A stretch of DNA of 60,633 nucleotides, the filler included, from Platydemus manokwari (lineage: Eukaryota), in NCBI GenBank assembly GCA_037951405.1. It is 6 parts of 6 records of this genome, joined end to end, with 100 filler letters (N's around TTAATTAATTAA, not from the genome) between each part and the next. Parts side by side here need not be neighbours in the genome. Positions count along the whole stretch, not along the records: positions 11,142 to 20,685 come from JBBMOY011234431.1; 5 more parts are not named here. One strand, 5' to 3'. Position 1 is the first letter of the stretch. Every line of letters starts with the position of its first letter. The translations under genes and the position numbers were made by a program. Under the pieces are notes generated by a model. It was given only the letters and a program-made list of their open reading frames with translations, searched no databases and was not told where the DNA came from. Positions 12,316 through 42,084 of the stretch are shown in pieces.

Positions 12316-14371
12316 AAATTCAAGGACAAACAAAATGCTATTTTTTGACAATTTGGAGATTTGTCTAAAGATAGAGTAAAAACTAAATGAAGAGGTGAAG
12401 AGAAATCGTAAGTACAGTTATAAGCAGAGATAAAGTAAATTTGGATTGATAGACTTTGGAACAGGTGAGCTCAAAAACCTTAGAATACATTGAAATGAAA
12501 TATTAAAAGAATTTGATGAAAATAAAGTAAAAAATTCGAAAAAGAAAAATACTGTGAACATAAATTGGGTAACAATATGACTCGTTTTAAAGAAATCCGA
12601 GGGAAACTTTGGAGTATCACTGACCAAGAATCGTGAAATTTCGAATTGGAAAAAAATGGAAAGTGAATTTTGTGCAGTGCTATCATCTCAGATTTGGAAA
12701 AGTAACGTTACTAGTTTAGGATTTTGACGAGTCATAATGAGTATTTTGGATGCGATAAAAGGAAAACTAATGGAAAAGTTTTAGACACTTATGTTACAAA
12801 TCTTCTAAGAAAGGTTGTATTTTCGGAAGATTGATATTATATATTAGATTTCGGCACGGAACACTCCGCTTATGTATTTAAATCAGTTGTTGAAGGATGA
12901 CAATTATTTGTTGATAATTATTATCCTCCCAGAAATGGATATTATGGTAAAAACTGAAGATGAATACTTTTGGAAAAGAGAAGTTCCTGTTGACATTGTA
13001 AGCAAAATTTGGTTGACGATGAATATTTACTTGATTAAGAAATTCTTACTAGAAAGATTTGTTAGGGATCATATATATAATTGAATATGGATACAATTAT
13101 AATAAAATAATATGTAAAATAAAAATTTCATAAAATAATATGTAAAATAAAATTTTCATAAAAGTTTCTTTATTCTCTACAAATCTATTCTTTGTGTATA
13201 AATAAATGGGTTAAATAAAAATCATTTAAAACTAAAACAAAGACGCCAGTGTTTAAATAAAAATCATTTAAAAACCACTTAGTACGAAAACAAAGACACT
13301 ATTACTGAAAAATAAACAAAGCAATCAGCAAACAGGCAATACAAAGCTCAATATTAGAAGAAATTTAAACAAAAACATATACACAAAGCTACGCTTTGTT
13401 CCATAGAGCTCCATACAAAAAATAGTATAAATACTGAGCATTGTCTCAGTCTAAACGCCTTACAACGCTGTAGTTAGACAAATTCGTATAATCTTAATGA
13501 CTCTCTTGCAACAACGATCTATTATGAGTAATTACTATTTATTCACTCTTATCTCTTCAGTTATAACTGCAATCCCTTTACGGGCTTGTCAGCACATATA
13601 ACTACTCTATCTTTCTAATCTTTAACCGGGTCCAGGTCTGTGTCCGAGCTATTAGGCGGCACCCATCATCTTCAGGGATAAGAATCGAAGCTTATCTTCT
13701 AGCAACTCTTCATCTAACAATTTAGTTATTCAGCTTGTATTTATTGTAAAAAGTTAATAAATATTATACGCTTCAATTTGTTGTTTTGTATTGTCATAAG
13801 GGTATTAAGAGTGCTAGTATCCGAAATTGATATACACGTTAGAAGAAGCACGGGCTCTTCTGACAGCTAAAATGAATAATTATATGAAACTCACTCCGTC
13901 GAGAGAGCAAACAAACACCTCCAATGGGTTACAAACTCCATGTCTATCACCGATAGTCATGCGCGCAGAGAAAGCATACACCTGCAATGAATACGAGGAA
14001 GAAGCCGAGACACGTGGGAAATCGAAGAAATTCCCAAGGAAAATTCAAATTAAGCTAAAAAAAGTCTCACATAAGTAATCACTGCCGAAAATGTGCTCGC
14101 AACCATTGAATTAATAACTGAGGAACAATCAATGTTGACTCAGTTTGCCGTTAACTTAGTAAGGGAAGCTCAAAGGAACCCTCAAGATGAACAAATGATC
14201 AAGATTATCTTAAAGAATCACATTTACACTACTATACCTACCGATGTATTGGCTGCCGCCGCACCAATACTGGTTGAAATCTTGGACAAAGGAGCCATTT
14301 ACCGAAAGGAAGTACAGTTACTCCTACAACGAAATGGGCTAGCCATTCGGAGTCAACCGCAAGAAGCACCT

Positions 14372-14590
14372 ATGCTCACGCTACACATTCGGACCAGTCA
14401 TCACGGGAACTGGCTAAAGACATACTCTTGCTTCACCATGTTCGCAAACTAAGGCAGGATATCAGACAAGAAAAATCAATCACGGAGCCATTCATTATCA
14501 CAATTCAATCGAATCCGGTAGATGATGACGAATATTTAGCTGACGTAGGCTGCTTACCAGACATCGTCACAGTAGTAAAGGTACTAATAA
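14372..14590 (+). pseudogene. Ubiquitin-like domain split by a 1-nt frameshift at ~14439
   Basis: Joined reading MLTLHIRTSHHGNWLKTYSCFTxVRKLRQDIRQEKSITEPFIITIQSNPVDDDEYLADVGCLPDIVTVVKV follows the ubiquitin beta-grasp pattern. Confidence 0.55.
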
Positions 14591-14839
14591 CGCCAGTGGA
14601 ATCCAAAAAATGGAGGCGAATACCCACACTGTCCAAGGCAGAAATCGAACCAGCAACTGGAAGAGTGGAGACACAGTTACCGGTAGATTTGGATGAGGAC
14701 ACACAGGCCACCAGAGCCGGCTGAAAATGAAATCATAGAAATAGTGGACCTCTATCCACCAGCTATTGAAACCAATCAGAACCATGAGGAAATCATACGG
14801 GAGATAGAAAACCCTCCTCCAGAACCATAGCCACCGATT

Positions 14840-17395
14840 GTGCCAACACAGGACACTAGTGGACCACCGCGGAAACGAAGAAACAGAGACACACACGCCC
14901 GCACCAACAGTCAAGTACAAGCACAGTTGCTACGAGGACTTGCGGACGGCACAACTATAAATTCCAAGCAAGACATCCAGCAATGTCTCTTGCAAATTGC
15001 GAAAGGGATTGATCCCTATGATCAACGCTTAACAGAAGTAACCACCGAGGGTTACGAAAAACTACTCAGTGACATAAGCAGATATATGCCTAGGATTCGA
15101 CAGTTCACACATGATCATCCCACCGTTGATTCAGAAAACGTGTTATGGGAAATTATTAAAGACGGAATCACTGCATCAAGAGCCAAGATCATACTGATCA
15201 ATTTGGCAAATAAAATTATGATGGCGTCATATGGAGACACATCACACTACCAAGAAACATTGCAACAAACAATCAAATTAGCCCATCAAAACATTGGGAA
15301 ATGGATCCAAACGCAAGGAGGATGGACTCAGTTTGGATACAGCGAGTCGCTTACCACAGAAGGATTGGGTAACCTCAACAATAATGGGTTAATGAACACG
15401 CTGATCAAGGTTATTCTCATATGCAGCTTGATAGGGAAAACATCTATGCTCACCGCATATGATTGTTCGAACCATAAGCTGTCCACCATCTATTCGTTAG
15501 TTGATCTGTTTGAATGTCCAGCAGTCAATGTCAACAGCGTTAGACAAGGGCCACGGGAGTCCTATTATGTGTACCAGGAATTAGAATTCTATCGAACCAC
15601 AATCAAGGAATGCAGGGTCACGAAGGCCAAATTCGAATACTGTTGCGGAGCCTTTAGCCGCTCATCTGTATTAGATGCCAAACTTATCGCTCACAGCATC
15701 ACAATCGCACCTGAAGCCTGCCAAGATGCATTCGTACAAGGAAAACTCAGAGTCGACAGCGAGGTCACTCTCACAGCAGACGTAGGTAAGAGACTTGCTG
15801 AAACCATCACATGCGGAGGTAAAATTGAAACAGACGGGACATGTATCGGACGAAGCAAAAGCCGCAACGGAGACATAGTCTCTCATGTGGTAGAAATCGA
15901 AGATTACACCGTCCAATTAGTACAATATGAAGGGACGTTTGACATGAAAACTGAAAAAATGACTCAGTACCCACAGTGCGTATCCAAGTTCAATAGCTGC
16001 AATGTAGACGGAGCCACATTAGTATACGAAGCTCGACGAGCTTACTGTGACGTGGCACTACTCAAGCAAGCATCGTTCATCGCAATCAACGGAAGCGCAT
16101 GGGATCACCAGATTCCAGGAAAACGACAGCTGACACAAGGCCGACTAGATGGACGAATCGAAGAAAAGACCTTGGTCAAAAAGAGTGCTTCAATGTCCGA
16201 CCAACAAACCGACGCCATACGATTGATACGTGGACAGTCACTGGATAAATGTGGGATACTAATGTACGAAACAAACTATCAAGGGATCTATGTGAGCCAT
16301 CAGAGCGCTCGAGATGCCAAAATGCTGAATGTCAAGGACGTCCAACTCACTACATACACCAACAACAAGGGCGATTACCTATATCACGATCTGCTGCTAC
16401 AATTAGCTGAGATCTATCAGGAAACCCAGCATCATCAGTGCAAACGGAACCAAGAAATCGCACAAAACCGCATGGGCATAATTATGACGAATCAAGACCT
16501 CGAAACACCCATTCTGATGGAAAATGGGGTGTATGGTCGAATCAGTGGTGAAGCATGGCACACGTACGAGTGTGAGCCAATTCAAGTCGCCATCGCAGAC
16601 ACTAAGAAATGCACAAGGGAGTTAGCAGTAATCTATAAGGAACAAACCAGGTATATTCAACCAATCACGCACATCTTGCTTCCGGCAGGGACTCCACCAC
16701 AAAAGACAGAATGTAATCCAATGATTTCACCATTGTACAAAATTAATGGACAATGGGTGACTATACCGGATCGAAGATCACCTCGCAGTCCAGTACAACT
16801 GCTTAGGTTGGGAAACTCATTGACTACTCGCGAATTCCAGCCCATACAGGACTTGGAGAAAAGGGGAGTCTACACGTCTAAGGACATTGTCGAAGCACTT
16901 AGAGGATTAGGATTTCCCGAGCTCCGAGCAAAGGGAATAACAGAAATCATTAGGACAATTTATCTCGATAGTGCAACCAGTCCGAACTATGATCACTTGT
17001 TCACAATGGAACATTTCAAGAAAGCTGCTCATCATGTAGCCTATCAAATATGAGGAGCCTTCCCAGCTTTCGGAACATTCATTGCAGGATGCACAGGGAT
17101 TTATGTCATCTGCATAGGACTAAAAGTCATCATACAACGACTAGTATTCATATATTACTGGTACAAACTGTTCGTTTGTTCATCAAAAATCATCCGCGGC
17201 ATGTGCCCGATAGTCGACAACCGCCTTTTTCATAAACATCATCATGGAAGTATGTACAAAATAAAAGAGATGATAAGAGAGATGAGACACGAAGTTCACG
17301 CCTCTTTTCGACCCGCCGTTCTCGAAGAACAGGAAAAATACTACCCCTCCGACGAGGATAATAACGTTAACTCATATGCTCGCATCTTATACTAA
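14840..17395 (+). CDS. Polyprotein segment: Bcl-2-like domain + hydrophobic helix + chuvirus-like envelope glycoprotein (one in-frame TGA at 17051-17053)
   Basis: BH1-like EIIKDGITASRAKIIL (15149-15196); BH2 WIQTQGGWTQF (15302-15334); hydrophobic LMNTLIKVILICSLIG; glycoprotein from LTAYDC (15449) with chuvirus G Cys pattern and motifs CG-x4-T, YxNxK-x-xY, GE-x-x-x-x-xCxP, PxYxIxGxW, GVYT...FPE. TM segment follows the TGA in the same frame. Confidence 0.85.
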
Positions 17396-17870
17396 TAATA
17401 CGCAAACGGATTGGGATGTTCATCTCACCGCCTGCCTCTACGCGTATCGAAATGCTGTTCAAGCCAGTACAGGATATTCGCCATTCTATTTAATGTACGG
17501 TCGAGAAAGCAATTTACCAGTGGACGTACAAATAGAACCAAGAGTAACTCAATATATGGACCACGAAGATTACGCAGTTACGCTCAAGGAACGTTTAAGC
17601 AATGCCTGGCAGAGAGCTAACCTTAATCGCAAATTTCATTAAGAACAGACGAAGGAACAATACGATAAGCACACCGCTGAACGAATTCAACGTCGGAGAT
17701 GCTCAAATCAAAACATGCAAGAAAGGTATATCCGGCAAATTAGTAAGGCCATTCAAGGCCCCTATGTCATCGACAGGGTCACGGATACTAATTTTGTTAT
17801 TCGACCTATTAGCAATTCCGCTGCCGAACCAATCTGGGTTCACGCAAATAGGTACAAGAAATACGAAGAG
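17360..17870 (+). pseudogene. Gypsy integrase C-terminal half and GPY/F module (frameshifted)
   Basis: TLTHMLASYTNNTQTDWDVHLTACLYAYRNAVQASTGYSPFYLMYGRESNLPVD; KLVRPF/QGPYVIDRVTDTNFVI...WVHANRYK. Confidence 0.9.
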
Positions 17871-17949
17871 ACTGCATCTCAGCCAGTAAGCACCACTGCA
17901 CATAAACGAAAAAAGGAGCAGGATGTCCTGAAGGCATCCGGAAGCAGAT

Positions 17950-18733
17950 ATCCTCTCCTATCACAGCTGATCACACTCACAATATTGAACCTTCTCAGGA
18001 AGTGCATCACTCGCCCCCATTGGTCGAACCAAATTGGACTTACGATTGGGGAGTATTTTGGCTAGGAGTTACAGCTCACCAGGAGCCGCAATATCACTAC
18101 AGCACAACACTTGTCGGTCAAGACGAGATTGGCCGCACACAACATTACACCGCACGATGCATCTTCAATCAACTGCGACATGGCCAGATCTTTGAGGTCA
18201 CTACTACTTAATGGGCTAGGAGAAATAACACTTATCATGAAACGGATAAAGGCGAAGCCCGAATACAACTTGTAAGGTTTAAAAAGGGTGCAAATGTTCC
18301 TGCTACCTATTCACATATCATCATCAAACAAAAGGAAGAGCACATCTTCATGATATCGGATAAAGAAGGGGAGTATCACTTTCCACGAAATCAGTGTCAG
18401 CGAAAGGTCCAAAAGAAAAAGCGTAGAAAATCACAGCGAAAAACTACATTATCAACTACAGCACGCAGCACAACGAATAAGCGCACAATAATCAGCACGG
18501 AAATTATGCCTGTCACTATGGAAAATCAGGCACTACAGGAAGCCGAACAACGAGCCAGTGTAATGGTTATTATTATTTGCACCTGTGTGTTAGTTCTGGT
18601 TATTGCCACACCAATTGTGATATTCCAATGTAAAAGGAAAACGCATCACAGAATCCGATATACTTGGCACGAAGGAAATGACTCTCCAGCTTCCATGCTT
18701 ACAGCACTAACGCACCAAGTCACTACCTTATGA
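17950..18733 (+). pseudogene. Putative type I membrane protein after integrase (frameshifted)
   Basis: Hydrophobic LITLTILNLL after RYPLLSQ; Thr-rich stalk; TM VMVIIICTCVLVLVIATPIVIF (18560-18625) followed by QCKRK. Confidence 0.5.
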
Positions 18734-18826
18734 CAATTACAGTATAACGATATTAAAGTTAATATCCTCCATAAATTATATATCTTTATTTATATCTACA
18801 GTGTACTCTGCAACGAGCAATGTTTA

Positions 18827-20685
18827 ATGTTGAATTTCAACTATTATTATTGCCAGTCCATTAATCACCTTGTTTTGGATTCCAGAACGTACCAAATTCA
18901 ACAATACAATCATTATGGAATAGAAGCTAACGCGGGAGGTCGACCCATGAGTATTAGCTCTTATGAGGTTGAACCAATTATTGGCACCAACTTCCATAAA
19001 GAGATGAGCATAAACGTAGCACACAATCGACGTTGGCGATATTATGACAATCAAACGCTTCTACTGAATAATCTCAAATTTGAAGGGCAAGGACCTCGCC
19101 ACATATCTATGGTCTTCATAGACCAGGCGGAAATTAAAGAATTAGTGACAAAGCAAACCAGGCGTACAACACGGAGGTAGTCCATCTCACTACTACCGTC
19201 CAGCCAATCGAAATCAGAATTGCCGGCGTTTTCGAAACTATCAAATTAGAAAAAGTTTCCAACCTGGAAATTCTTCAAAGTGATATGAAGCTCAAATCGG
19301 CGCTAATCGTTAGTCATCGCGTACCGAATACGTTGGTACTAGAAATGGGATTCAGTGATATCATAAATATTCTTCGAATTCCCCTTTCTTACTACGACAA
19401 TACTATCTCGCAACAAGTGATTCACAGTTATCACTCATTTCTACGACAAACACTGTCCATCGAGGATCTTAAATCTCAGACACTGTTCATTGCTGCCAGA
19501 ATAGCATATGCAGCTCCACGAATCAATGACACTTACACGAAAACCGTCGCTTTAGCCGTCACCATCTGGAACTACGAAGGTCACGAGCAGGGCAACACAA
19601 AAATCACTCCACGTGAATACATTCGACACTGGAGAAACGATGGAGCAGATGTGTGGCGAGAAGCAGATATCATCGGCCAAATGGACGAAATCAAATGCAT
19701 TCGTCGAGTCAATACCATCGTGGATCAACACCTATTAGTAGGTTACAAAGTGGCCGAATTATTGGAACCTTTCCGCATACCATCAAACCGTCTGCTAGGT
19801 ATACGAGACCTATACCGAGCCAAAAGCCTCGCCGTATATGGAATAGTGCATGTAGCCCACTTTGCATGGCACAAAATCTTGAAACAGGTGGTGCTGAACT
19901 ACCAACCTGGTCGATTGAGCTCAAACAGAACTGTTAATATACTAGAAGAGATTCGTAGCGTCTACCTCGAATTAGAATACAAGTGGATCGACCACTACCC
20001 CATACCAGACGACGAACTATTGAATAACGAAGAAACCAACAAAAGCGCGTTGCAATTTCAGTTGAGTTTGATGCCACAGAGATCTAAAAGGAAGCCTGAA
20101 GAGCCCGCGGTCAAACGGTCAAAGGCATCAACTAGCAATGAAAATGGTGAAACACGGACCGCTTTTCCGTTCATTAAATCACGAGCCAAAATAGCCCCTG
20201 ACTAATCTGAACGAATAAAACCCGTTTCACAGGTTAGGCAGATAGAAATTGCAGAAAACCCTCGAATTGTCGCCATGGATCCATCTAAGAAGGTTACTAT
20301 CAAAAAAGCAGTCACAGCTGTTCCACTCAACCACTCAAGAGTTGTAGAAGTGGATAAATCTAAAACAGCCACCTCAAAGGACATTATCAGTCAAAAGCAA
20401 TTCAGCATCGAACCTTACAAAGGCCCCGTCAATTGCTTCCATAAGACAACCCGCGTCATCTGATCTCGACGGGATGCTCGATCCCTCAGGACTACCATAT
20501 CTGCCACAGGATATCTTAAGATACTTCGAAGACGACAACAAGCTATGGTTCTTAACTCAGCTTACGTACACTTGTTCCGATCAGCTCTTTCCAGGAACAG
20601 TAAGCTTAGAGTTCGCTAACAGAGACTTGGAAATCGCTAGACAATATCCGGAGCGAGCGCAACGAGAAAGTTGTAACTGGTGTAA
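18827..20685 (+). pseudogene. Unknown accessory ORF of element 1 (fragments 18827-19180, 19285-20205, 20275-20463, 20474-gap)
   Basis: Consecutive same-strand ORFs of 117, 306, 62 and >70 aa with the same composition as the element; no motif recognised. Confidence 0.55.
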
Positions 20686-21179
20686 NNNNNNNNNNNNNNN
20701 NNNNNNNNNNNNNNNNNNNNNNNNNNNNNTTAATTAATTAANNNNNNNNNNNNNNNNNNNNNNNNNNNNNNNNNNNNNNNNNNNNTTTCTAAATATAATT
20801 TATTTATCAAATAATTATTTTTTTCTTAATAATAATTTAATTTTAAAATTATTTTTATACTTAATTATTTATTTTTAGAAAAATAAATTTATTTCTTTTA
20901 TCTTTAGACTTACTCTCATTCTTTAACAATTCATTCTGGTTTATTTTTAATTATTTTTAAAATATTAACTCTTCAGTACTAATCATTTCTTGAATATCTC
21001 TCATATTATTTATTGAACTATTATCAAATTTGTGAACTATAGACATTTTAAATTGGGAATTTAAAGGGTAAAAATACCCCAAACAAATTTGAATTATGGA
21101 AGGAAAGGAACTTCTTTCGAATGAAATTCCGCCTCTCAAACAAGTTTGGCTTAGAGAAGGAACTTTGTTAAAATAGAAT

Positions 21180-21520: not shown

Positions 21521-21723
21521 AATATCCTTTAAATCAAAATTAATAGTTTTATTAATACCATACTTAGATAGAAAATTTATTAAATTTATTTGATCTCCAG
21601 CATCCGTTTTAAAAAGTAATAAAATTGGGGGAATCTTCTTCAGACGAAGAATAAAATCTTTCTCCAGATGAAAAATAAAATGATTGGACGAAGTTCCTTC
21701 CTGCTTAAATTCCCAATTTTAAA

Positions 21724-22270
21724 ATGTTTATGGTTCACAAGTTTGATAATAGTTCAATAAATAATATGAGAGATGTTCAAGAAATGATTAGTGCTAAAGA
21801 ACGAATTTTCGATAGAAAGTATATTAATGAGGAGGGTGATAGTATGAAAGGTCGTTTAGAGTTAAACAATTATAGAATATCAAACTTGGGAAACACATAA
21901 AATTATTTTGATGCTGTTAATAAAAAATATTTTGAAAAATGTATCAATGAAATTAAAAAGAATTTTGAGAAAGAAATTGGGAAAATTAATTCAATCTAGG
22001 TGCCTTTACTCGTATGTCAAGACTGAGAACTGAATTAATTAAAGATAATAAACAGAATATTGATAAGCTTGATTCTTTATGTAAATTGATAATTACTATG
22101 GTAAATAATAATAAAAAAATTAATGGAAAAGAAATAAAATTGATCTCAAAAAAATTATAATTCATAGAAGGAAAAACAAAAGCAGAATTTATAGAGATAG
22201 TCAAGAAAAAATTGAGAGTTCAGTCCGGAGGAGAATTAGAAGAAAAAATTATGAATTTAATAGAGAAATA
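21724..22270 (+). pseudogene. Polinton accessory ORF remnant with fibre/adhesin-like motif and coiled coil
   Basis: MFMVHKFDNSS...EEGDSMKGRLELNNYRISNLGNT*NYFDAVNKKYFE; start region duplicated in inverted orientation at ~20971-21064. Confidence 0.55.
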
Positions 22271-22562: not shown

Positions 22563-23194
22563 TATATTACGTTTTTAAAAGGTTTAGTATTAATACCAAC
22601 CCCACAAATAAATCTCTTTTGGTCAAAATTATGTAAAGCTAATTTATTTGTTGATAATATTTGCATTTCGTGTTTATCTGAATTAAATCTCATTACATCC
22701 TGATAATTATCTTTGTTATTAAATAGTCCATCTTCATATTTTTAATAATTACCGCTTTTTGAATTCCCTTATTTTTTTTTATTTTTGTTTTACTATCATA
22801 TACATCATAACAATAACATTTTCATCTAATTGCTACCCATTCTGTTAAAATCTTTCCATTTAATTCATCTTTAAATTTCCCTGGTACTTTTTTATTTATT
22901 GTGTTATATAATGGATGATCTCCATTATAATCTGAGAAATCCAATTCATTCTTTACGTCTTCATCAATATTTAAATCCTCAAAAATATTCTCTGTTTTAA
23001 TATTTAATATGTATGAATCCGTATCCATATATAATACTTTATATTTAGGTTTTAAAATATTATAATTCATACATCAATAATTTACTTAATACTAAAATAG
23101 AAAATCCTAAGTAAGTTGGCTTATTTAATTTTACTTGTTCCTTATGATAATGAATTGCAAATAAATCATCATTAAATTTTGTGAATCTTTTGTA
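22563..23194 (-). pseudogene. Polinton protein-primed family B DNA polymerase, C-terminal remnant
   Basis: KLNKPTYLGFSILVLSKLLMY...KVLYMDTDSYI...NKKVPGKFKDELNG...KNKGI...NKLALHNFDQKR. Confidence 0.9.
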
Positions 23195-24769
23195 TGTTGT
23201 GTTGGAGTTTTGGTTCTTTTATTATTTAGATATGTGAGTTATGTATACTACCGGTTGAAGCGCAATGTCAATCCGGTAGGTGCGTGCTCCTATATTATTA
23301 TTCAATAACAAATACTAATAATTCAAAGATAAGCCGATTATAAAATGTATTTGCCCTTATAACAATGTACAAATGTTTAAACGTAATTGATACAATAAAA
23401 TTCTCTTTTAAAAATTCAGTCAGATTACTTTCTCAGACAAACAAAATTTCAATTTACCAATACACCGTTTAGGAAAATATTTTCAACAAGGGAAGGCTCC
23501 GATAACGAACTTCCTTTGTGTTGATATAGAATTTAATTATATATGCATATATATTTTATAATATGGGCGGGTCCCTCAACTACTTATATTTTTCCTCTAA
23601 ATATATTCAAGTATCACACCTTTATATTTTTTTGCGTCGTTTATTTTATGTCGTATCGATTTTTCACTGCGTGTCTCAGAGTACTTTTAATCGTAAAATT
23701 CCTTTAACTCTTTGAAATTCGTCTGGTAATTTTGAGAGCTAAGTTTTTGCGAGTGAAAATAGTGGCTTTGCCAATATAGTGTTTTCTAGGACCGATTCTG
23801 AATAATCGTTTTAAATTATTATTTTCTTTTTTCTTATTGGATATTGGAATTATTTTTCAAATTCGCCTAGATTAATAATTTTGATTTTATTATTCACTCG
23901 TATTATTCATAATATTTTTCTTTTTTCTCCTACATTGCAATTATCGCCCACAACGCCCACATTTTAATTAATTTATTTTTATCCATGTTTATAATTTATA
24001 TTATTATTATTCCGCATAATAATTTTTTAATATTATTATTATTATAATAATTACTATTAATATAACATATAATTTGATTTTTATAATTTTTTATTCTTTT
24101 ATATACAATTTTTTTCTTTTTTCTCAAAAATACTACAAATTCATAAATCAAAATAAAGTCATAAAATACATTTTTTCATGCAAGATCAGAATAGTGATAG
24201 TCATATTGCTCGTCCATGTCTACCTTCCATTGTAGACTCTGGTAGGAGGGGGTTGATTGAGGTGATTTGATCTTCTGATATAGGGAAGATATGGAGGATG
24301 AGCGAGTTGTTGATCGATTTGATGCATTGTTTTGTTGTATTGTTGTTGTTGATCCCACGTTCATTCTGCAACACATATAATTAATATTCCTTGATTTTCT
24401 CTTCTTGTGTCTGGGATTTGCACTACTATTTCCCTAACTGATTCAGTGATGATTTCACTTGCTATGTTGATTCTTCTTTTCCACTTCTGATTTGATTCCT
24501 GAGTTTCCTTATATGTTCTTAATTCTTCCTCTAGATCATTAATTTGCTGCTGTGATTTCTCTGCTTGCTACATTATCTGATTTAATTGTTTATTTCCCTC
24601 TTTTAACTCGTTGTTGTTAGTTTCTTTACTTATTGTTATTTGATATGATTCCTCTTTTATTTCTTCTTCATGGTTTTCGATAACCATTATCATTTTCTCT
24701 GTTGGTTTAGGGTTTTGACCTTTTTTCTCTCTGTATTCACCTAGTGCCTTTTCTTCCGCTTTCTTACAC

Positions 24770-25420
24770 CGATTTACGTGAACTACTATTGAATCTGCGT
24801 TCTTATTTTTGATTACATATAAGTTAGTGGCTGTCACTTTTACAACCTCATATGGTCCCTTAAATGGTCTCTGTAGTTTAGTTGTTAATCCCTTTTAGGC
24901 TTCTGGTGCTCTAAATTCGCACTTTATCTCCTGTTTTGAAATTGTGTTTCTTTGCTTTTTGATCATAATATTTCTTATATTGATCTTGTCGGAATTTGCT
25001 ATTTAATTGAACTTTTTGATAAACCTTGCTTAATCGTTCTTTCATCATTGTGACAAATCCCAATCCTGGCTCATCCATTAGTTGTGATGTTGCTGGAAAG
25101 AAAGTTAAGTCTATTGGTAAAAATGTTTCTCTTAAATACATTCAGTAGAACGGTGAATATTGAGTTTTTTCATTAACTGACGTGCTATACGCGAATAAAC
25201 ATGATTTGATATATTCATCCCAATCGTTTTGTTGATAATTCACGATATTTGATAGTATATTCTGCAATGCTTGGTTAAATCTTTCAACTAATCTATCAGT
25301 TTGTGGATGATATGGTGAAGTTTTTAGTTTCTTGATTTTAAATAATTCTGTTGTTTCTTGGATAACTTTGTTTAAAAAATTCTTTTCTCTATCTGTTAGC
25401 AATTTACTGGTACTCTCCAT
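24770..25420 (-). pseudogene. Integrase core/C-terminus and GPY/F module of element 2
   Basis: TDREKNF...KTSPYHPQTDRLVERFNQAL...DWDEYIKSCLFAY...QYSPFY; YYDQKAKKHNFKTGDKV; KLQRPFKGPYEV...VVHVNRCK. Confidence 0.9.
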
Positions 25421-38460: not shown

Positions 38461-40879
38461 TTATTATGATCGATAACTGATTTTGTCTTTAACCCGTTTT
38501 AGCTTGTTTTATACTATAACACTTGTTTTGATTAATAAATATTTGTTTATTTATTATTTTCTAATCTTCTGATAAAATGAGGGTTGACATAAAATATTTA
38601 AGGAAAGATCGCATAATGAAATATTTGCTACATCTATTTACACCAAGTCTTTGATTTGTTGTACTCCAACCATCGTAACATGATTCAGGTTAGTCGGATT
38701 TGTTATATTTTACAACAAAAAGGAAAATCAATCAATAAATAGATAATTAAATTTGATAAAAAAAATTATAAATAATCATAAATAATTATAAATAATGATA
38801 TATAATCATAAAAAATTATAAATATTTATAAATTGTTATCAAGGAAATCGTATTGAAAATATCAAAACGAAATTAAATTATTTTATAATAATATCGATAA
38901 ATTATTATTAGTTTTTTATTATAAATATTTAAAGAGTAAAGAAACTATTTTAACAGTGGCTCTATGTTTATTGGATCAAAGTGATAGATTGAAAAAAGAC
39001 AAATATAATCTGGTATCACAATTTTTCAGGATATAGCAAAAATTTTTAAAGAATTCGAAGAGCAAATGAAAATGAGGTACTTTCATGGGTGTGCACAAGA
39101 ATAAGTGGCTATTTCAAAGCAATATGTGCAAAAAAGTGTATCGACATCTTAATAAAGGTATTAACTATATATGTTTAGCAAATACCACCTAAGAGAAACT
39201 ATCGGTACAATTTAGATAGAACGGATTTTATATATACTTATAATGACTGTTTATGTTTGTTTCATCTCTAATACTTAGTTAAAATTGTTAATANNNNNNN
39301 NNNNNNNNNNNNNNNNNNNNNNNNNNNNNNNNNNNNNTTAATTAATTAANNNNNNNNNNNNNNNNNNNNNNNNNNNNNNNNNNNNNNNNNNNNTGTATGA
39401 TTATGTAGGTGTGTCAATGCTTAAATTGCTAAAACAAGGGTTTCAAGGTACGAAATCGTTTTTCTTTATCCGGATTTGGTCTTCACTCAACAATATATAT
39501 ATAATACTATCATAATATATACTATCAACACCACAGTGAATTTTTCCGACATGCGCTGAAAATATCACGCATTTCTAAATATTATAATTTCACAGTTCAT
39601 TTTAATATTTATTCCATGGGATAGGAAAATGACTATCACTAGTATTTTATTATATTTACAGTTAGTAAAATAATTGCAACTAAACATCTTTCAAGTATTA
39701 AATTCCTCTCTAAAGTCTGTGCCAGACGCAATCAGATCCTATGAGTGCCATTTCACTAAACATTTTTCAGGACACACAGCTATCAAAAAGATATTCAATA
39801 AGTTTGAACACTTGTTATTTTTATTTACTTGTTTTTTACTTGTTTTTTTACTTGATCATTTATTTATTTGTTACATTTAAATGAAACCCAACGTCTGATA
39901 ACTTTCAGATTGTTGATTTTATTTCATATTAGATCACATTGATAATCAATGTTCTCATTAAATCACAATTATAAATTTTTTATCAGTAATTATGTAAATA
40001 AATATCTATCAATCAATTAGTAAACCAGGCCTCAATAAATAGAAATGAGTGTTGTTTATTTCTTAAATACACTCTCAAATATTTATGGATAACAATATAT
40101 GTTGTATAAATAAATGATAGTCAACCCTATCCTTCTCTCAGCAACTATAACACCTATTTGTCGAATATTACTGAAGCAACCCAAATAAGTCAAGCTCTCC
40201 ATGTTATGGATTGTTTAATGATCATATTTAAAACTATATATAAATGCTTATAATTGAAAGTGATCGTACAAATAACTACTTTTTCAATATTAATTATAAT
40301 GAAATTGTTAATTTTCATTAAAATCAAATCTTAGGTTTCCATTATTAAATATTATTAACATTAAAAATCGATTTTTAATCTGAGACAATATATTACACAT
40401 AAAAGGTACTACGAGTATTTTAATAATTTGGCAACGTTATTGAATTGTTGAATAAATTATATAATTGAAAACAAAAAATTAATTTCACTAAGAATACCCA
40501 TAATTAGATCTCAAGTAAATATTTGTTCATTTTGGATTAATTGTAATCCCACCTTGAGAGCAGTTTATTGTTCATTCTTTGAACATTAAAAAAAATTAAT
40601 TTAAGTTGAAGGCATTCTGCCAATTAATTTAATAATTTTATGGAAATCTTTTTTAAAACTTGTGGAAGTTTTTTAATTAGAAAATGATGAATATTTATTC
40701 CTCAAACGAAAATATTATTATAATTAATATTTTCAAAGTTTACAATATAGGATATTTTGAGTTTTTAAAGACATCGTTTGTTTATATAATATGTCAATAT
40801 TTCAATTTTTTCGCTTAATTGAATTTTAAAAATTAATTTCGAATTGATAATTATTTTTAAAAAATTATTGATTATTAAA

Positions 40880-42084
40880 ATGAAATTTAATTACTTAATT
40901 GTTTGTCATTCTGGAGCTGGAAATCATTCCGTAGCTAGAGAAAACCTTTACAAAAATGTTTGTATTAAAGCATGTAAAGCTGCTCAAAATATTTTGAACG
41001 ATCAGTCTGAATCAATTCCAGATATTATTAAAGCGGCTGTTGAAGCAGTTAAAGTGCTGGAAGATGATCCATGTACGAATGCGGGTTGTGGTAGTAATTT
41101 AACAATTAATGGTAAATTGCAATGTGATGCAGCAGTTATGTGTGGTCAAAGTCTCAGATTTGGAGCTGTAGGATGCTTAAGTAATATTAAAAATCCTATT
41201 CTTGTCGCTGAAAAATTATTAAACAGACAGTTAGATGAGGCTTTATTGAGCGGCGGAAGATATCCACCAAGTGTTTTAGTTGGGAAAGATGCAACCGACT
41301 GGGCTGTTATGAATAGTTAAATCTATTATATATTTCTTATAGGTAAATTGTTTTTTAAATTGCAGATATCAGTAAAATTGATAATTCGGAGCTGATAACT
41401 GTTGAAAGACTAAGAAAGTTTGAAAAATATAAAAAATTATTATCAAAAAATGAATCCTTAGCTAAAAAACGGAAATTAGATGACTGTGAAGAGAATGCAA
41501 AGCGCCCCTGTGAAATTGATCTGTCTGAAGATAAAAGCTTCCTCGATACGGTTGGAGTAATTATTGCTGACAGTTTCGGACGAGTTGTATCTGCTACGTC
41601 AAGTGGGGGCATTTTTCTGAAACAAGATGGACGACTTGGTCAATCTTGTATGTTCGGTTGTGGATGTTTTGCCGAACAGAAAGATAACGGTATATCAGTG
41701 GCGGCAGTTTCGACTGGATTGGGTGAACAATTAATGAGAACGATGTTACCAATGAAAACCTGTGAAGCTCTTTCATCGTGGTCATTTGATGATGAAGACA
41801 TGAATGTCCATGACAAATTTCAATCGTTTCTGGAGAAAAATTTCATGAATTCTGTTTTTCTGAGCGGTGACCCGTATAAATCGTTTGGAGTTCTCGGTTT
41901 GAGAAGGCAACTTATCAATGACGACAAAGTGAGTATCGATTTATTATTCGGTCATTCGACTCCATCTCTATGCTTGGCTCATTTGAGCAGTAATGATTCC
42001 ATTCCACATGCAGTGATGTCGAGAAAAGTTGATAGCGAAACAGAATTCGTAATCGGGTCACTGGGAACTGTCTTCGGTGTATGA
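40880..42084 (+). CDS. TASP1: Threonine aspartase 1 (taspase-1), 384 aa. Exons 40880-41315 and 41366-42084
   Basis: HSGAG, LEDDPCTNAGCGSNL, FGAVG..IKNPI, autocleavage LD/TVG (41542-41556), SSGGIFLKQDGRLGQ, GCGCFAE, STGLGEQL; a 50-bp GT-AG intron restores the frame. Confidence 0.93.

Follow-up and report, generated by a model that had tools for sequence, protein, structure and literature searches.

A probable internal envelope signal helix behind a Bcl-2-like domain in broken, Burro-like Ty3/gypsy copies of Platydemus manokwari

The window analysed, a stretch of 60,633 nucleotides, consists of six contigs of 8.9-12.2 kb each, joined by N spacers and with a GC content of mostly 25-29%. Two broken elements were located in it, element 1 on the plus strand of the contig at 11142-20685 and element 2 on the minus strand of the contig at 20786-29669. 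As the two lie on different contigs joined by N spacers, they are not established as neighbours. No LTR pair was found inside the individual contigs of the window. A host gene of the asparaginase-2 family was recognized by Pfam, in two pieces, at 40823-42084 (+).

Element 1 contains an ORF of 740 codons, stop to stop, at 14831-17053 (+), which covers a Bcl-2-like domain, a hydrophobic helix and the ectodomain of an envelope glycoprotein (env). The first Met of this ORF is residue 86, within the Bcl-2-like domain, and none is present in frame ahead of the domain. A word-index search with the whole ORF returned no homologue.

The Bcl-2-like domain, at 14975-15349 (+), was recognized by a sequence profile, a predicted structure and Foldseek. 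As a single sequence it matched weakly (Pfam, E 0.022; Bcl-2A1 in the PDB, E 0.33), and the PF00452 scores of the window domain and of the relatives P0006 and P0017 were 15.7, 20.1 and 14.5 bits, respectively, all below the gathering cut-off of 31.4. A profile of element 1 and four relatives (profile A1) matched Bcl-xL in the PDB (E 6e-4). The AlphaFold2 model of the domain predicted from the profile had a pLDDT of 59; an earlier single-sequence fold was poor (pLDDT 47) and was left out of the structure searches. Comparison of the model with 48,161 chains (VIA) gave 32 leading rows that were all Bcl-2-family or poxviral Bcl-2-like proteins, the best with a Z of 8.6 and an rmsd of 3.2 over 112 residues, which is moderate for a helical bundle, and Foldseek placed BAK first (E 6e-3). 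Based on this model, with which the sequence profile agrees, the domain upstream of the helix has a Bcl-2 fold.

The helical-bundle fold and a BH2-like motif (WIQTQGGW, 15302-15325, +) are shared with Bcl-xL, BAK, KsBcl-2 and A179L, and as in the cellular and DNA-virus proteins a hydrophobic helix follows, 25 residues past BH2 in element 1. In contrast to those proteins, the window domain scores below the Pfam cut-off and lacks NWGR, the BH1 motif of the Bcl-2 family, which is present in the Bcl-xL alignment obtained here; its BH1-like segment reads DGITASR (15161-15181, +). NWGR is replaced in all seven Bcl-2-bearing sequences considered, namely element 1, P0001, P0006, P0009, P0017, P0019 and L001 (the carriers). 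The GGW of BH2 is invariant in the five rows of profile A1 and altered in P0019; the sequences in the domain comparison are 13-17% identical, with BH2 nevertheless kept. The match to TIGR00865 ends at model position 172-179 of 213, short of that family's tail. The ESM Atlas gave no match to the Bcl-2 part, and a word-index search for longer homologues with profile A1 returned only its own four input proteins. A further word-index search, for near relatives of the domain, was empty, so that no host Bcl-2 donor or cellular tail sequences were available for comparison. A BH2 remnant suspected by eye in P0003 was rejected as not significant, 104 of 300 shuffles being as good.

The sequence-only reading had proposed for a hydrophobic stretch at 15389-15466 (+) two possible roles, tail anchor of the Bcl-2-like protein and signal peptide of the glycoprotein. 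The stretch is present as described and corresponds to residues 187-212 of the ORF, 26 residues as quoted; residues 191-202 form the most hydrophobic 12-mer of the 740 residues (mean Kyte-Doolittle 2.58). The putative internal signal helix of env was delimited here to 15392-15454 (+), with Met188 at its head, a core at 15401-15436 and a polar cleavage region. As had been observed, the helix directly precedes the glycoprotein, with AYDC at 15455 in element 1 and the order helix, stop, AYNC at 28287-28219 (-) in element 2. A spacing of about 20 residues after BH2 had been given for both elements. It agrees with element 1, in which the quoted Leu is about 21 residues past the BH2 Trp and the 12-mer begins 25 residues past it, and does not agree with element 2 (about 32). 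The cut drawn for element 1 puts Met at -1, against the small-residue rule; sites four and six residues before AYDC satisfy this rule. The position used as -1 in the family is occupied by Met in element 1 and P0001, the two of the seven carriers that fail there. The 15 residues ahead of the helix of element 1 have a net charge of -1, unlike a typical n-region. The PF24664 alignment of element 1 starts on the helix itself (model position 4 at 15398), as do those of L001, P0001, P0006, P0009 and P0017. Across the seven carriers, 6-10 residues separate the helix end from AYDC and 25-59 separate BH2 from the helix start.

The env ectodomain of element 1, which starts at AYDC, was assigned to PF24664 (Monjiviricetes fusion glycoprotein; 15455-17050, +; E 1.8e-58). 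It has 14 cysteines in common with each of five relatives tested, and a PDB sequence search with env gave no match. An in-frame stop precedes the C-terminal membrane anchor of env, and anchor and tail continue in frame (17051-17395, +); the anchor, at about 17078-17134, is a hydrophobic 19-mer within a match to PF24664 positions 543-617 (E 3.8e-7). A C-terminal remnant of integrase with a stop and frameshifts follows at 17364-17966 (+; tblastn of P0002, P0005, P0014 and L001), with no protease, RT or RNase H in the interval from env to this remnant. In sequencing run X1 the family of element 1 is multi-copy, with a summed depth of about 280-990 compared with 15.5 for one flank contig, most of the pieces being 80-95% alike. 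It was also observed that 14831-17050 runs for 2.2 kb without breaks and keeps the 14 conserved env cysteines, while both flanks are full of stops and frameshifts; this unbroken part may be a mosaic assembled from several copies of the family or may reflect longer selection.

Further features were seen on either side of this ORF. A conserved segment in another frame 5' of the Bcl-2-like domain (14440-14559, +) was 42% identical to L001 over 43 residues (pairwise E 2e-8) and also matched P0003. It resembles ubiquitin by eye only, and Burro, a giant gypsy element of planarians, has a Ubi2/SUMO-like domain before its BCL2; neither Pfam nor PDB supported a ubiquitin identity, and among the relatives scanned with Pfam ubiquitin was matched only in P0017 (E 0.031). 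Further 5', at 14075-14449 (+), lies a helical domain similar by eye to sequences at the same place in P0017 and P0009; no family was found for it, the ESM Atlas giving weak ARM-like or unnamed leads only. A MIF4G-like domain guessed by eye upstream was unsupported in Pfam and in the other searches. Accessory ORF pieces occur 3' of the integrase remnant at 17906-20205 (+), among them a Ser/Thr-rich stretch with a membrane helix (18212-18733) and a 355-residue ORF with no Pfam match (19138-20205). P0002 and L001 also have a membrane-protein-like insert in or after pol.

Element 2 is more fragmentary. On the minus strand, a decayed Bcl-2-like remnant in two frames was detected at 28372-28739 with a seven-sequence profile, as two colinear pieces of 7.9 and 13.8 bits for which 1 of 500 and 0 of 500 shuffles, respectively, were as good. 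A five-sequence profile had missed this part, its scores being equalled by 16 of 300 and by 52 of 300 shuffles. The remnant is moderate evidence, since the target windows were picked by eye. The putative signal helix of element 2, the in-frame stop at 28251-28249 and AYNC together occupy 28219-28299 (-), the stop falling in the cleavage region. Env is present as a remnant with many stops and frameshifts (27061-28230, -; PF24664 pieces and tblastn), and remnants of RT, RNase H and integrase lie 3' of it, in env-pol order (24688-26957, -; PF17919, E 8.5e-25; rve_3, E 0.0075; tblastn). Three other features were noted on this contig: a third env fragment at the contig edge (29438-29641, -; tblastn E 4.6e-4 to 0.008), a short ORF at 22822-23073 (-) with no Pfam match, whose YMDTDS motif we take to recall the family B DNA polymerases of Polinton-like elements, and a MITE-like inverted repeat of about 95 bases (20970-21064 and 21705-21800) with arms 93% alike and about 640 bases apart.

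Searching exhaustively, we found 991 relatives with E <=0.001, of which the best 150 were examined and 23 of these were scanned with Pfam. Relatives were found in neither the viral nor the genome contigs searched, and metagenome contigs gave one among 172 candidate stretches. The top relatives were Ty3/gypsy polyproteins in which env precedes protease, RT, RNase H and integrase; some of them also have gag motifs at the front. Env, protease, RT, RNase H and integrase were found in one protein in P0002, P0005, P0014 and P0018, and in L001 a single open frame of at least 3018 residues contains a Bcl-2-like domain, the helix, env, proteases, RT, RNase H and integrase. Judged by their domain content, the relatives of the window elements are single-ORF Ty3/gypsy polyproteins of the order gag-(cargo)-env-pol. 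A single gag-env-pol ORF was seen in P0018, P0013 and P0003; L001 has a single ORF of the same kind, but gag lies outside view, and gag was found in neither broken window copy. Behind env, the single polyproteins L001 and P0001-P0004 each carry two or three aspartic protease domains. P0005, a eukaryote-type env-pol polyprotein, has an NCBI entry as a hypothetical protein from a Flavobacteriaceae MAG, probably through contamination. P0019 and P0076 are probably mis-joined predictions, with env pieces fused to part of an ion channel or to mitochondrial ribosomal protein L47.

The region ahead of env was then compared through the motif [AG][YF]DC, which was present in 102 of the best 150 relatives. 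In 73 of these a hydrophobic leader (mean best 12-residue Kyte-Doolittle score 2.44) precedes the motif, which is 15-40 residues away from the start Met. By a -3/-1 scan that was lax and had no random control, 52 of these 73 stand-alone glycoproteins obey the rule two residues before the motif, as do all 14 relatives that have at least 100 upstream residues and no Bcl-2, each of which has the same helix. The rest of the 102 comprise five with a Bcl-2-like domain and 10 that fell in no group and were dropped. Four of the 14 (P0067, P0080, P0140 and P0149) have long leaders without being gag-env-pol proteins and were left out of the set of 10 Bcl-2-less polyproteins used below, in which the absence of Bcl-2 was judged by a small profile that did recover P0019 and L001, neither among its inputs. 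The same helix and cleavage region were found in all 10, which speaks against the helix being the Bcl-2 gene's own tail. The leader homology, the hydrophobicity and the start of the PF24664 match all support the proposal that the glycoprotein has an internal signal sequence in this helix. The survey shows that the predicted helix occurs independently of Bcl-2, and by its positional homology to signal peptides it is assigned to env. As four of the seven carriers have no Met within 50 residues 5' of the helix, it would act from inside the polyprotein in the open-frame relatives.

Env trees of 28 and 20 rows were calculated, omitting element 2 and P0019 as fragmentary and including L001 in the 20-row tree only. 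The Bcl-2-less P0002-P0004 were sister to the Bcl-2-bearing P0006/L001 (UFBoot 96). Other Bcl-2-less sequences, P0013, P0034, P0014 and P0018, fell outside the group of all carriers (UFBoot 79; FastTree 0.939), as did P0007, weakly (UFBoot 55), and P0005 and P0025 were intermingled with carriers at weak support. The simplest reading of the trees is that the internal signal is older and that Bcl-2 was placed in front of it and then lost more than once; since the deep nodes are weak (UFBoot 20-55), one gain with several losses is a matter of parsimony only.

Planarian Burro (GYPSM1) elements, as described in PMC6431247, encode a BCL2-like motif, env and protease in one polyprotein, with the BCL2-like motif directly before a mononegavirus-type fusion glycoprotein and env in frame between gag and protease, and decaying copies are reported there too. 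The window elements agree with this layout in two respects. A Bcl-2-like domain stands immediately 5' of env in element 1 and, on weaker evidence, in element 2; a mononegavirus-type env (PF24664) precedes RT, RNase H and integrase in element 2 and the integrase remnant in element 1. The likeness rests on the published layout, compared here in contigs under 10 kb; Burro elements are further characterised by BIR, MATH or ankyrin cargo, a length above 25 kb, LTRs and a planarian host. Troyka elements were ruled out as an identity, as they have no envelope. Errantiviruses of the GAG-ENV-POL type with an HSV/gB-type glycoprotein, described from Platyhelminthes, Nematoda and Bryozoa (PMC13524379), share gene order and glycoprotein class, their ectodomain being flanked by a signal peptide or a second membrane helix, and an S. 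mediterranea env row in that paper's supplement resembles the window env by eye. In the parts of PMC13524379 available, Bcl-2 and apoptosis are absent from the main text, and the supplements lack Burro and contain one unrelated occurrence of 'bcl'. Taken together, elements 1 and 2 are probably decayed copies of a Burro-like Ty3/gypsy element with env in frame between gag and pol, in which the helix is env's own internal signal sequence. The BCL2-env-protease architecture is thus already known, and the window copies are broken and add little beyond further members.

The main functional paper on Burro1 is reportedly that of Lee et al. 2026. A reading of the helix as signal or anchor was not found in the literature searched, as far as its available text goes; that paper and Grohme et al. 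2018 may discuss processing. That Burro-type elements contain a Bcl-2/env fusion has been on record since 2018-2019, with the function of the fusion left open, and the accessible description is silent on signal sequences, anchors and cleavage (PMC6431247). The available text of PMC12440569 and PMC13238120 holds nothing bearing on the signal/anchor question.

In the standard polyprotein topology, as in flaviviruses, an internal signal inserts into the membrane with the N-terminus cytosolic and the downstream protein lumenal. For an intact element, Gag and cargo would likewise be made in the cytosol. The helix would then insert into the ER membrane with the N-terminus cytosolic, feeding the env ectodomain into the lumen, and signal peptidase would cut 2-6 residues before AYDC; the C-terminal anchor of env would bring protease, RT and integrase back to the cytosol. 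The sequence preceding the helix would remain tethered by it, at least as long as neither signal peptide peptidase nor the element's protease made a second cut. Where this sequence is a captured Bcl-2-fold domain, as in one group of elements, the tail-anchor topology at the ER would be a by-product. The identity and order of the domains and the positional homology of the helix to signal peptides are shown by the comparisons above, and from these we infer the insertion, the cleavage and the retention of the upstream product. After cleavage the Bcl-2-like domain would plausibly remain in the cytosol, with a membrane helix at its C-terminus. The helix may work like a tail anchor, except that, unlike the tails of cellular Bcl-2 proteins, it would probably enter the membrane during translation and take up a C-terminal position only once the cut has been made. 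The earlier dual-role proposal therefore stands in part: a membrane-anchored cytosolic Bcl-2 is plausible as a by-product of cleavage, but not as the reason why the fusion persists. Among close relatives Bcl-2 varies while the helix is constant, some Bcl-2-less elements being sister to carriers as noted, and the dual role would follow equally for Bcl-2-less elements, with the Gag side tethered, so it cannot explain that persistence.

Other readings differ in what becomes of the tethered domain. The helix could be a transient signal only, with signal peptide peptidase or an aspartic protease freeing the Bcl-2-like domain to act, if at all, in soluble form or within the Gag precursor. The long, polar and variable linkers between BH2 and helix, the one to three aspartic protease domains of the same polyprotein and hydrophobic cores that are short and contain Gly, Ser, Cys or Pro would suit this; such cores favour cleavage within the membrane, hepatitis C core being an example. 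A protease site was not identified. This reading, which departs from the best explanation in the lifetime of the anchor alone, we regard as possible though doubtful. A further reading, which we consider unlikely, is that the dual use has itself been selected, cleavage delivering a working anchored Bcl-2 to ER or mitochondria after the carrier helix was re-tuned or gave way in part to the tail of the captured gene. The domain with its BH2 has been kept despite the divergence given above, and carriers and non-carriers (seven and 10) differ in mean best 12-residue hydrophobicity (2.34 vs 2.86; Mann-Whitney p 0.055), in Ala or Gly at -1 (one of seven vs eight of 10; Fisher p 0.015) and in a net positive charge of the 15 residues before the helix (three of seven vs all 10; p 0.015), p-values that are overstated because several features were examined, the choice among them was made with the data in view, and the sequences are related to one another. 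Helices behind Bcl-2 thus appear to be poorer signals than those without it, a weak post hoc lead, and the pattern to be expected from selection for a second role. NSm of Rift Valley fever virus is a functional analogue: signal peptidase frees it from NSm-Gn-Gc, and a C-terminal helix holds it on mitochondria (PMC4926171); on our own reading of the available text, one segment serves as both NSm anchor and Gn signal. NSm would work as in the dual-role model by analogy only, being from an unrelated virus with an unrelated glycoprotein and with no Bcl-2 link described. Against such selection stand the replaced NWGR of all seven carriers, their variable BH2-helix spacing, a TIGR00865 match that ends before the family's tail and the close relatives without Bcl-2.

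Two readings concern the production of env instead. Drosophila errantiviruses use spliced env, and a separate env made here from a spliced message or an internal AUG would have the helix as an ordinary N-terminal signal peptide, with Bcl-2 merely in frame upstream. Met does occur 0-8 residues before the helix in element 1, P0006 and P0019 (three of seven), so a start at Met188, at the head of the helix, is possible for element 1; P0001, P0009, P0017 and L001, on the other hand, have no Met within 53-104 residues. A YAG ending at 15359 lies just 5' of the helix, but with 8 of 14 upstream pyrimidines it is equalled or beaten by 25 of the 72 YAGs in the ORF; no splice acceptor stands out in the ORF, and L001 has none better. 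Because pol is in frame after env, reaching it unspliced means translating through the helix, and a separate env is improbable. Least probable of all is that the host has domesticated the ORF of element 1 and keeps it open as a gene for a secreted env ectodomain. Its unbroken 2.2 kb between flanks with several stops and frameshifts, the 14 intact cysteines, the Met at the helix start and the stop before the anchor would agree with this, but the family is multi-copy in run X1 at the depths given above, and as the short-read assembly may be a mosaic, the open frame says little.

The preferred explanation thus remains that of an internal env signal behind which the Bcl-2-like domain may stay tethered. 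By its sequence, the helix at 15389-15466 is a real feature, in a new and broken member of an already described type of element, with a topological consequence that is plausible. This topology predicts how gag-env-pol polyproteins would thread the ER membrane, where they would be cut and where the Bcl-2 domain would finally reside, and the Bcl-2-plus and Bcl-2-minus sister elements provide natural comparison pairs. It is a long shot that an animal endogenous retrovirus lineage makes a working anchored Bcl-2 with the env signal helix as its tail, re-tuned (less hydrophobic, with a weaker n-region and a slower cleavage site) toward ER or mitochondria. If true, host-cell protection would be coupled one-to-one to envelope synthesis, convergent with phlebovirus NSm-Gn.
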